64,000 nucleotides of DNA from Escherichia coli O127:H6 str. E2348/69 (GTDB lineage Bacteria > Pseudomonadota > Gammaproteobacteria > Enterobacterales > Enterobacteriaceae), in NCBI RefSeq assembly GCF_000026545.1, contig NC_011601.1. The stretch is one strand, 5' to 3'. The position numbers and the translations under genes are program-made. Under the pieces are notes generated by a model. The model was not told the DNA's origin and did no database searches. It saw only the letters and a program-made list of their open reading frames with translations. Numbering within the stretch: position 1 is the stretch's first letter; every line of letters starts with the position of its first letter. Of the stretch, positions 5,521-10,024 are shown one piece after another.

Positions 5521-7143
5521 ATGCGCGTTAACAATGGTTTGACCCCGCAAGAACTCGAGGCTTATGGTATCAGTGACGTACATGATATCGTTTACAACCC
5601 AAGCTACGATCTGCTGTATCAGGAAGAGCTGGACCCGAGCCTGACCGGTTATGAGCGCGGGGTGTTAACTAATCTGGGTGCCGTTGCCGTCGATACCGGG
5701 ATCTTCACCGGTCGTTCACCGAAAGATAAGTATATCGTTCGTGACGATACCACTCGCGATACTTTCTGGTGGGCAGACAAAGGCAAAGGTAAGAACGACA
5801 ACAAACCTCTCTCTCCGGAAACCTGGCAGCATCTGAAAGGCCTGGTGACCAGGCAGCTTTCCGGCAAACGTCTGTTCGTTGTCGACGCCTTCTGTGGTGC
5901 GAACCCGGATACTCGTCTTTCCGTCCGTTTCATCACCGAAGTGGCCTGGCAGGCGCATTTTGTCAAAAACATGTTTATTCGCCCGAGCGATGAAGAGCTG
6001 GCAGGTTTCAAACCAGACTTTATCGTTATGAACGGCGCGAAGTGCACTAACCCGCAGTGGAAAGAACAGGGTCTGAACTCCGAAAACTTCGTGGCGTTTA
6101 ACCTGACCGAGCGCATGCAGCTGATTGGCGGCACCTGGTACGGCGGCGAAATGAAGAAAGGGATGTTCTCGATGATGAACTACCTGCTGCCGCTGAAAGG
6201 TATCGCTTCTATGCACTGCTCCGCCAACGTTGGCGAGAAAGGCGATGTTGCGGTGTTCTTCGGCCTTTCCGGCACCGGTAAAACCACCCTTTCCACCGAC
6301 CCGAAACGCCGCCTGATTGGCGATGACGAGCACGGCTGGGATGATGACGGTGTGTTTAACTTCGAAGGCGGCTGCTACGCGAAAACTATCAAGCTGTCGA
6401 AAGAAGCGGAACCTGAAATCTACAACGCTATCCGTCGCGATGCGCTGCTGGAAAACGTCACCGTGCGTGAAGATGGCACAATCGACTTTGATGATGGTTC
6501 AAAAACCGAGAACACCCGCGTTTCTTATCCGATCTATCACATCGATAACATCGTTAAGCCGGTTTCCAAAGCGGGCCACGCAACGAAAGTTATCTTCCTG
6601 ACCGCCGACGCCTTTGGCGTGCTGCCGCCGGTTTCTCGTCTGACTGCCGATCAAACCCAGTACCACTTCCTCTCTGGCTTCACCGCCAAACTGGCCGGGA
6701 CTGAGCGTGGCATCACCGAACCGACGCCAACCTTCTCCGCCTGCTTCGGCGCGGCGTTCCTGTCGCTGCACCCAACTCAGTACGCAGAAGTGCTGGTAAA
6801 ACGTATGCAGGCGGCGGGTGCGCAGGCGTATCTGGTTAACACCGGCTGGAACGGCACTGGCAAACGTATCTCCATTAAAGATACCCGCGCTATTATCGAC
6901 GCCATCCTCAACGGTTCGCTGGATAACGCAGAAACCTTCACTCTGCCGATGTTTAACCTGGCGATCCCAACCGAACTGCCAGGCGTAGACACGAAGATCC
7001 TCGATCCGCGTAACACCTACGCTTCTCCGGAACAGTGGCAGGAAAAAGCCGAAACGCTGGCGAAACTGTTTATCGACAACTTCGATAAATACACCGACAC
7101 CCCTGCGGGTGCCGCGCTGGTAGCGGCTGGTCCGAAGCTGTAA
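5521..7143 (+). CDS. pckA: Phosphoenolpyruvate carboxykinase (ATP)
   Basis: 540 aa from ATG 5521 with SD AAGGAG 8 nt upstream. Kinase-1a motif GLSGTGKTT. Track ORF starts further upstream at 5452 in the same frame. Confidence 0.95.
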
Positions 7144-7162
7144 TCAGCTGATATCTCATTGA

Positions 7163-7193
7163 CCCCTTATCCAAACGGATAAGGGGTTTTTTT
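7163..7193 (+). terminator. Rho-independent terminator of pckA
   Basis: Perfect hairpin CCCCTTATCC-AAAC-GGATAAGGGG followed by TTTTTTT. Confidence 0.85.
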
Positions 7194-7252
7194 ATATCTA
7201 ATTAGCTACCAATATGTACACTTATAATTATCAATAGACCGCAGGATGCATT

Positions 7253-7569
7253 ATGTTCACCTTTATTGAACTACAAGGATTTAGCAAACGCCGCCAGTTA
7301 TTGCTACCTGATAAGTAGTTCCGGGCTTTTCAGGAACTACTCATTCAAGATCCCACTGCCGGTGACATTATCGCAGGCACAGGCAGTTTTAGAAAAATTC
7401 GCTGGAACCGTTCTGGAATGGGGAAACGGGGTGCATTCGGATAATTTATTACAACGTAACACGCAATGGCCGAATTTATCTGGCGTTGATTTATCCTAAA
7501 AATGAACAGGATGATTTAACAGAAGAACAAAGAAAGGCATTGAAACTATTGTCCGAGAAGCTGCTTTAA
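7253..7569 (+). pseudogene. Decayed RelE/HigB-family type II toxin gene (internal amber stop plus a -1 frameshift)
   Basis: ATG 7253 reads MFTFIELQGFSKRRQLLLPDK, then in-frame TAG at 7316-7318, then FRAFQELLIQDPTAGDIIAGTGSFRKIRWNRSGMGKRGAF. A 1-nt shift near 7436-7440 (ttc gga taa where ttc cgg ata would keep the frame) precedes RIIYYNVTRNGRIYLALIYPKNEQDDLTEEQRKALKLLSEKLL, stop 7567-7569. The conceptual protein of about 105 aa resembles RelE/HigB-like toxins (GKRGG-R-IYY core). Confidence 0.75.
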
Positions 7570-7627
7570 TGTTGAAGCTCCACAAATTCCACCATGGCCG
7601 AAATGCCAACGGAGGCATTGAAAACAG

Positions 7628-7924
7628 ATGAAAGATGAATTATTTGCTGATCTTCTTGCCAGCGCAGAAGAAATGGTACGCATCGAAAAGGGTGAAGAAA
7701 CGCCTGAACCAGAGCACGTCCATACTTTTAGCGAAATCGATGTAAAAGCGATCCGTGAAGCAACGGGTTTACGTCAGCAAGATTTTGCTGTCGCCGTAGG
7801 GGTAAGTTATGACCTGGTCAAAAGCTGGGAAACCAAACGCCGTCAGCCTACCGGAGCACCCCGAAAATTGCTCCTGCTTTTGCAAGCGAATCCTTTCATT
7901 ATCAATCAATTGAAAACAATCTAA
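7628..7924 (+). CDS. XRE-type helix-turn-helix antitoxin (HigA/COG2944-like), apparently intact
   Basis: 98 aa ORF with SD GGAGG upstream; HTH segment GLRQQDFAVAVGVSYDLVKSWETKRRQPTG; sits immediately downstream of the toxin remnant (toxin-first HigBA-like arrangement). Confidence 0.75.
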   Translation: MKDELFADLLASAEEMVRIEKGEETPEPEHVHTFSEIDVKAIREATGLRQQDFAVAVGVSYDLVKSWETKRRQPTGAPRKLLLLLQANPFIINQLKTI

Positions 7925-7955
7925 AAACGGGAGGCACCTTCACCTCCCGTTTTAT

Positions 7956-7956
<1 letters not shown>
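7925..7956. terminator. Bidirectional hairpin terminator (antitoxin on + strand, envZ on - strand)
   Basis: AAAA-ACGGGAGG-CACCTTCA-CCTCCCGT-TTTATTT; A-run and T-run flank the stem. Confidence 0.7.

Positions 7957-10024
<2,068 letters not shown>

Follow-up and report, generated by a model that had tools for sequence, protein, structure and literature searches.

A probable HigB-2/HigA-2-type toxin-antitoxin operon in stepwise decay between pckA and envZ of Escherichia coli E2348/69

Background

[quoted passage not shown] Mutagenesis has shown that R51, R64, Y82 and K84 matter for the activity of the toxin, VcHigB2 (PMC5416850), and footprinting places VcHigA2 on an operator, TGTACGC-N5-GCGTACA, that overlaps the promoter (PMC11006873). 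A HigBA2 system with a toxin of the same Pfam family is carried by the Acinetobacter baumannii plasmid pAB120, where it is functional in plasmid maintenance; there a single, autorepressed operon promoter is the only source of antitoxin transcripts, a predicted internal promoter being inactive (PMC5906591). Other members of the same RelE/ParE superfamily are HigB/HigA of Proteus vulgaris Rts1, in which the toxin also comes first, and RelBE of E. coli K-12.

Here we describe a cassette of this kind in a stretch of 64,000 nucleotides (64 kb; the window) from E. coli O127:H6 str. E2348/69, an enteropathogenic strain to whose chromosome positions 7100-8000 of the window are 100% identical. Like the V. 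cholerae operon it has the toxin gene first, with an antitoxin of the same layout as HigA-2 behind it; in contrast to V. cholerae, the toxin gene is a pseudogene and the operator has suffered a deletion. In contrast to the plasmid-borne A. baumannii system, the E. coli copy is chromosomal, sits at one fixed site and is decayed. We report that the segment between pckA and envZ very probably holds a degenerate HigB-2/HigA-2 (NadS) operon, which would be an old and polymorphic resident of this site in Escherichia and related genera. The family to which the locus belongs is already known and characterised by structures, and public annotation flags the pseudogene; what is new here is the deletion that collapses the operator, the history of the alleles in 5,426 genomes, the signs of long residence at pck-envZ and the conservation of NadS over its toxin.

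Methods

Lesions in the cassette were mapped by alignment to cassettes in which the toxin is annotated as intact (SWHEFF_68 and KGu016). Alleles were counted in 5,426 complete E. coli genomes using probes of 43-45 nt centred on the lesion, with which the other allele has no 28-mer in common. For the operator search, the 110 bp 5' of the toxin gene were lined up across all homologous loci. The species survey was based on one genome per species.

Results

The pckA-envZ locus

The RefSeq order at the locus is pckA, the toxin pseudogene, intact nadS and, on the opposite strand, envZ. RefSeq annotation (for pckA, on the identical E2348/69 record) and the ORF list place pckA, the left flank, at 5521-7143 (+ strand; stop codon at 7141-7143) and envZ, the right flank, at 7956-9308 (- strand). 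Folding predicts an intrinsic terminator after pckA (7161-7195, + strand), which consists of a hairpin with a 12-bp stem and a T-run. The hairpin itself (7161-7188) has a predicted energy of -20.4 kcal/mol (z -5.7), as expected of a strong terminator, and it is part of the cassette-bearing haplotype: the K-12 spacer does not have it, and a homologous hairpin lies 5' of the cassette in Citrobacter and Kluyvera. At the other end, folding and alignment give a bidirectional terminator hairpin common to nadS and envZ (7924-7953, no strand assigned), which is kept in K-12 and bounds the variable segment on the right.

Compared with K-12 and O157, the variable segment runs from the pck stop to the common terminator and covers 7145-7923, that is 779 bp against 43 bp. 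In K-12 (DH1) and O157 the coding sequences of pckA and envZ are only 75 bp apart; the sequence-only reading of this DNA had given K-12 only a short spacer at this position, and K-12 does lack the cassette. Neither mobility genes nor terminal repeats were found beside the cassette, and an Rfam search of the locus gave only sub-threshold chance matches, on the terminator, and no RNA family.

A toxin pseudogene with two lesions

The first gene of the cassette (7253-7569, + strand; ORFs, RefSeq, alignment and homology) is a HigB-2-type (PF06296) toxin pseudogene, which RefSeq labels 'type II toxin-antitoxin system RelE/ParE family toxin' and 'frameshifted; internal stop'. An AGGA Shine-Dalgarno sequence at 7243-7246 precedes the start at 7253. 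The frame is interrupted by a TAG at 7316-7318 and, from about 7433 to its end at 7569, continues in frame +3. The alignment traces the stop to substitutions at 7313, 7315 and 7316, all within four bases, which turned GAT GAT GAG into GAT AAG TAG (D21K and E22stop), and the frameshift to codon 61, where a single G of GGTGGC is missing between 7432 and 7433. Rejoined, the three frame pieces give the 105-aa protein WP_000493756.1, to which the E2348/69 toxin is identical apart from its lesions, so that the three substitutions and the one deletion are the only differences from the intact allele. The in-frame TAG and the length of about 105 aa had already been read from the sequence, as had a 1-nt frameshift; its placement at 7436-7440 did not stand, the deletion lying slightly upstream. 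With its reading frame broken at these two places, the toxin of E2348/69 is dead.

The family was assigned from the intact allele. It matches the V. cholerae HigB-2 structures over residues 3-100 with an E-value of 1.3e-23 (5ja9_C), and a value of this order (1e-23) means homology far beyond chance. In a Pfam scan that listed domains up to E 10, PF06296 ('RelE', the HigB-2 family; E 1e-5) was the only domain reported, with neither PF05015 (Rts1 HigB) nor PF05016 (K-12 RelE-ParE) among the matches, and UniRef names the identical protein 'Toxin HigB-2'. The fragments thus do belong to a toxin family, as had been supposed from their letters. In the intact E. coli allele, R50, R63, Y81 and K83 align to R51, R64, Y82 and K84 of VcHigB2, so that all four catalytic residues are kept. 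In E2348/69 all four codons lie 3' of the TAG, and those for R63, Y81 and K83 are also 3' of the frameshift. Among the PADLOC defence models the toxin had no match and NadS only generic HTH matches, and no known anti-phage system was recognised.

An intact nadS gene

The second gene, nadS (7628-7924, + strand; ORF list, RefSeq, HMM and alignment), encodes an intact 98-aa HigA-2-like antitoxin/HTH protein (WP_000650976.1) and is annotated in RefSeq as 'nadS: NadS family protein'. The sequence-only reading had likewise seen an intact gene with a Shine-Dalgarno sequence of its own; by reading of the sequence, the motif is GGAGG at 7611-7615 (+ strand), 12 nt before the ATG, which is a rather long gap. 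The protein is identical to that of strains with an intact toxin. It passes the NCBIfam NadS equivalog model NF041265 (75.1 bits against a cutoff of 60, residues 5-96), has an HTH_31/HTH_3 match at residues 39-76 and can be aligned with HigA-2 over its whole length, a weak similarity (E 5e-5) that includes the N-terminal segment neutralising the toxin in V. cholerae. In the cassette the toxin gene comes first, and the antitoxin encoded behind it has its neutralising segment at the N-terminus and its HTH at the C-terminus. The two genes are adjacent in 27 out of 27 loci compared, and the pairing of NadS with a HigB-2 toxin rests on gene neighbourhood in this comparison. In the searchable literature we found neither the origin of the NadS name nor experimental work on NadS; the sole relevant mention of nadS is that PGAP annotates one in K-12 too.

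Because the toxin and NadS match HigB-2 and HigA-2, PF06296 and the NadS model, we classify the cassette, on homology, as a HigB-2/HigA-2-type type II toxin-antitoxin operon and as neither a HigBA of the Rts1 type nor a RelBE of the K-12 type, whose antitoxins have an architecture unlike that of NadS. RefSeq, homology and alignment together bear out the two-gene cassette that had been proposed, in which a RelE/HigB-type toxin has decayed and the HTH antitoxin is intact.

The promoter and a collapsed operator

A TATAAT at 7223-7228 (+ strand) had been pointed out as a possible -10, and its register agrees: by position it is the -10 of the cassette promoter, since it corresponds to the -10 of homologous loci (TAnnnT, 2 nt after the operator). 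The near-palindrome ACTTATAATTATCAAT, which had been taken for the operator, fares otherwise. It is AT-rich and not conserved across species, and intact E. coli alleles vary there (TTATAATAATCAAT in two). The conserved element is instead TGTAC-N3-GTACA, immediately upstream, which in E2348/69 is ruined by a deletion of 7 bp. This deletion was absent from the sequence-only reading.

In the alignment of upstream regions the arms of the TGTAC-N3-GTACA palindrome are invariant and its 3-nt centre varies freely. GTAC-N3-GTAC occurs 47 times in 176 kb of homologous loci, and 46 of these matches lie no more than 120 bp upstream of the toxin start; throughout the 64-kb window there are zero matches. 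Anchored on the proximal copy, the consensus reads cTTGAt, 2 nt, TGTACnnnGTACA, 2 nt, TAnnnT, and the palindrome exactly fills the 17-bp spacer between a TTGA-type -35 and the TAnnnT -10. Most loci have a second copy of the palindrome about 30 bp upstream, beyond the -35. The pck-envZ cassettes have the proximal copy only and a poor -35, which in E. coli is poor even in the intact alleles (TACCAA). A sigma-70 consensus scan of the + strand 5' of the toxin and of nadS called no promoter in the decayed allele, nor in the intact one.

The intact E. coli allele has TGTACACGGTACA, then CT, then TATAAT. In E2348/69 seven bases (one GTACACG unit) are lost at about 7216-7222, where ATATGTACACGGTACACTTATAAT has become ATATGTACACTTATAAT and only a single GTACAC(G) repeat of the original two is left. 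What is left of the conserved operator, according to the alignment and a motif census in 29 loci, is TGTACAC (7215-7221, + strand), which now adjoins TATAAT, and the old -35/-10 spacing is reduced from 17 to 10 bp. A palindromic operator over the promoter is thus present in the intact alleles and the homologues, and not in E2348/69.

The V. cholerae higBA2 operator is also a palindrome with TGTAC/GTACA cores over the promoter, as in the intact E. coli-type cassette. The cores are, however, 3 nt apart in the E. coli-type operator and 9 nt apart (N9) in that of VcHigA2, most relatives of the E. coli cassette duplicate the operator around the -35, and of the four VcHigA2 residues that contact bases, three are changed in NadS (R68D, E71K and N72S). 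Because contact residues and half-site spacing differ, we infer operator recognition from conservation and not from homology. On this ground TGTAC-N3-GTACA is the likely operator of an uncharacterised enterobacterial HigBA2 branch, and the 7-bp deletion would have cost the cassette its self-regulation in cis. If the rule from A. baumannii holds, the deletion would either cripple transcription of nadS or leave a weak promoter, driven by the -10, that NadS could not repress. Read-through from pck is another possible source of nadS transcription.

Alleles and the order of decay

The cassette is present in about 1,328 of the 5,426 complete E. coli genomes (~24%) and is always chromosomal. At the TAG site 106 genomes have the TAG allele and 1,222 the intact sequence; as these numbers add up to 1,328, there are no intermediate alleles in the genome collection. 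The 7-bp upstream deletion was likewise found in 106 of the 5,426 genomes, and the 1-nt frameshift in three, all O127:H6. Carriers of the TAG include CFT073, Nissle 1917, ATCC 25922, ABU 83972 and O127:H6, and the deletion list holds the same kinds of strains. TAG and deletion occur together in all three sampled TAG genomes (E2348/69, CFT073 and UPEC_U013), both are missing from all eight sampled intact alleles, and the toxin is intact in all seven sampled E. coli genomes of the non-TAG type. In RefSeq the toxin genes of CFT073 and UPEC_U013 are marked 'internal stop' only.

The counts also bear on the concern that the lesions might be artefacts. The frameshift does sit in a short G-rich run (GGGGTGGC), but it recurs in three O127:H6 assemblies; the same TAG allele is found in 106 independently assembled complete genomes and needs three substitutions rather than a single miscall; and a plain intact gene in 1,222 genomes makes recoding unnecessary. 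We therefore hold it to be extremely improbable that the stop and the frameshift are artefacts of sequencing or assembly, or that they act as recoding signals under which the toxin is really made.

The lesions being real, the comparison of alleles shows a stepwise decay, since the TAG is present in 106 genomes and the frameshift in the three O127:H6 assemblies only: operator deletion and nonsense cluster, which are found together in the B2 group with CFT073, Nissle 1917 and O127:H6, represent the earlier stage, and the frameshift came later, in O127:H6.

Residence at pck-envZ

The sequence-only reading had taken the cassette for a strain-specific insertion, which does not agree with the ~24% of complete E. 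coli genomes, and the other genera, that have it at this position. The toxin-nadS pair also lies between pck and envZ in E. albertii, where both proteins are 100% identical, and in Citrobacter gillenii, C. portucalensis, Kluyvera ascorbata and K. sichuanensis, the last with a toxin reduced to 17 codons and an intact nadS. The copies at this site in other species have the same pck terminator hairpin and the same single-operator layout. Between genera, dS is saturated (>2) for the cassette genes, as against 0.8-1.2 for pck and envZ, a difference that backs an old age only qualitatively; within Citrobacter and within Kluyvera the dS of the cassette is similar to or below that of the flanks. From the shared site in Citrobacter, Kluyvera and E. 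albertii, together with the dS pattern relative to the flanks, the data suggest that the cassette is a long resident of pck-envZ that has been lost repeatedly, and not a recent insertion.

A recent, strain- or lineage-specific insertion of a mobile element into an ancestral short spacer would fit the presence of only 75 bp in K-12 and O157, the frequency of HigB-2-family toxin-antitoxin cassettes on plasmids and the 44-bp K-12 spacer, which has no significant similarity to the cassette and so is no obvious deletion remnant. Such an insertion is nevertheless improbable, given that five other species share the cassette, the hairpin and the single-operator layout at this site, that the dS values are as just described and that mobility genes and terminal repeats are lacking at the cassette edges. 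We also considered whether the 44-bp spacer could be what is left of the nadS 3' end and rejected this, the gapped alignment being equalled by 319 of 2000 shuffles.

Outside pck-envZ the pair occurs in other contexts in Leclercia, Klebsiella, Enterobacter, Budvicia, Yersinia, Edwardsiella, Photorhabdus and marine gammaproteobacteria. Plasmids carry HigB-2-family toxins as well, with 900 records that include plasmids of Escherichia, Klebsiella and Salmonella; in 898 of the 900 the match to the toxin is below 60% identity. No DNA-level paralogue that would represent a second HigB-2-type pair was detected in E2348/69 or in E. coli. A 42%-identical pair lies beside fdhE on a contig filed as E. coli phage and is unmatched in all complete E. 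coli genomes.

Conservation of NadS

Antitoxins usually evolve faster than their toxins. Among 18 species in which both genes are intact, NadS instead shows the higher conservation of the two proteins in 150 of 153 species pairs (mean identity 87% for NadS vs 79% for the toxin), and both genes are under strong purifying selection, with omega about 0.05-0.07 where dS is usable. A full-length, 98-codon nadS stands beside a truncated or frameshifted toxin gene in Photorhabdus bodei, Enterobacteriaceae bacterium B14, Phytobacter ursingii and Kluyvera sichuanensis; Photobacterium ganghwense combines a frameshifted toxin with a nadS homologue whose ORF, of 101 codons, is full-length. The proximal operator arm is mutated in two toxin-decayed loci, those of Enterobacteriaceae bacterium B14 and P. 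ganghwense. Even in the four enterobacterial loci with a decayed toxin, the N-terminus of NadS, by which it would bind the toxin, is nearly invariant.

Discussion

In our reading of the locus as a degenerate HigB-2/HigA-2 operon, the intact form, as reconstructed from homology, would have one promoter that drives first the toxin and then the antitoxin, with TGTAC-N3-GTACA filling the -35/-10 spacer. The toxin would be a ribosome-dependent mRNA endonuclease, which the conserved N-terminal segment of NadS would neutralise, and the C-terminal HTH dimer of NadS, bound to the palindrome, would repress the promoter. In the lineage of E2348/69 the operator collapsed and the spacer of the promoter became shorter when 7 bp between the two GTACAC repeats were deleted, three clustered substitutions placed the TAG at codon 22, and the 1-nt deletion at codon 61 followed later, in O127:H6 only. 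The outcome is a dead toxin, with nadS left as an intact orphan gene.

Theory expects decay to begin with the toxin, because loss of the antitoxin first would be lethal, and toxin-first decay by itself does not prove a new function of NadS. Its slow evolution, which includes the toxin-binding N-terminus, may on the other hand leave room for an independent role. One could then see in the loss of toxin and operator a domestication and not plain decay, NadS being kept for a function of its own, either as an antidote in trans against HigB-2-type toxins of incoming plasmids or as a standalone transcription factor. The conservation of NadS above the toxin in 150 of the 153 species pairs, its omega of about 0.05, the full-length 98-aa nadS genes in four toxin-decayed enterobacterial loci (one of them, in K. 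sichuanensis, at pck-envZ), the N-terminus that is nearly invariant in such loci, the 900 plasmid records with HigB-2-family toxins and the fact that NCBI gives NadS a named family of its own would all be in keeping with this. Several observations make us regard it as unlikely nonetheless. Toxin loss in the E. coli lineage is recent, and NadS of E2348/69 does not differ from the protein found where the toxin is intact, so that too little time has passed for selection after the loss to be visible. Antitoxin specificity is usually narrow, which counts against a plasmid antidote, as does the identity below 60% in 898 of the 900 plasmid records. E2348/69 has no second copy detectable at the DNA level, the 7-bp deletion may have crippled the promoter, and the low omega in species without the toxin averages over the time in which it was still present. 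For E2348/69 we thus retain the decayed operon with an orphan nadS.

For the family as a whole we put forward, tentatively, a broader proposal: NadS-type antitoxins might be a subfamily that outlives its toxin and is selected for a role beyond guarding against it. They would evolve more slowly than their HigB-2 partners and would be kept at full length after repeated, independent decay of the toxin, in the E. coli lineage of E2348/69, Kluyvera, Phytobacter, Photorhabdus and one further enterobacterium, with their own operator eroded too in some of these lineages.

The E2348/69 locus leaves the view of the HigB-2/HigA-2 family unchanged. It offers a clean, datable case in which the decay of a toxin-antitoxin pair can be followed step by step in strains that are well known (E2348/69, CFT073, Nissle 1917 and ATCC 25922), and the comparison gives a likely operator for the uncharacterised enterobacterial HigBA2 branch. 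An antitoxin that is more conserved than its toxin and is repeatedly kept alone bears on what orphan antitoxins do. If the broader proposal is true, NadS would have a role such as immunity against incoming plasmids that bear HigB-2, or regulation of other genes, and TGTAC-N3-GTACA would be a defined and testable recognition element for this separate role.

Decay of the toxin gene and its operator

The stop codon (TAG, 7316-7318) in the HigB-2-type toxin pseudogene was created by three substitutions within four bases at 7313-7316 of the window, changing GATGAG to AAGTAG, and no allele intermediate between these two sequences is present among the 1,328 cassette-bearing complete E. coli genomes. 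Together, the clustering of the substitutions and the lack of an intermediate suggest that the cluster arose through a single complex mutational event and not through three separate point mutations.

With respect to the operator, which in the window has collapsed through a 7-bp deletion, a single arm mutation in one operator copy was identified in each of Enterobacteriaceae bacterium B14 and Photobacterium ganghwense (GTAC to ATAC, GTAC to GTTC; loci L028 and L029), in the region that precedes the toxin remnant by 20-60 bp. Both species have decayed toxins, and these changes may parallel the operator loss in the window.

Surroundings of the pck terminator and atypical copies at the pck-envZ site

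The pck terminator hairpin is flanked on both sides by a 10-bp direct repeat (7151-7160 and 7194-7203), the copies of which, ATATCTCATT and ATATCTAATT, are identical at 9 of 10 positions. Directly 3' of the hairpin, the T-run and TA stretch differ in length among strains (TTTTTTTATATC vs TTTTTTTATC).

Two comparison loci have an unusual structure. In E. albertii NBRC 107761 (L006, 3700-4100; contig NZ_BBMY01000013.1) the 3' end of envZ continues for approximately 80 codons and then changes abruptly to pck-like sequence that includes a second pck stop codon, a junction suggestive of misassembly or of a rearrangement at this locus. The pck-envZ copy in E. coli BS-04 (L034, 2501-3045; NZ_CP172819.1) is only 84% identical over 29% of the cassette and is annotated as a hypothetical protein of 53 aa. 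An internal stop also interrupts yhgE next to it. Either decay is far advanced in this copy or the assembly is of low accuracy.

Related genes at other locations

A HigB-2/NadS-like pair, 42% identical, is present in the record OR845303.1 ("Escherichia phage ECO95 1-6-1"; L041, 331-933), an unverified "phage" contig of 3.7 kb, where it adjoins an fdhE fragment. Since none of the complete E. coli genomes contains a match to the pair, the contig is probably bacterial DNA of another genus (Salmonella-like).

In E. coli K-12 BW25113, PGAP is reported to annotate a "nadS" (RS26030) that is missing from EcoCyc and is expressed (PMC12350097). At the DNA level nothing in K-12 matches the nadS of the window, and RS26030 must therefore be a diverged paralogue located at another site. 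The PLSDB record NZ_OL790696.1 (L042), a 4.8-Mb E. coli chromosome stored there as a "plasmid", has the intact toxin and, elsewhere in the record, a second tblastn match to it, which hints that some E. coli carry a second HigB-2-like gene.
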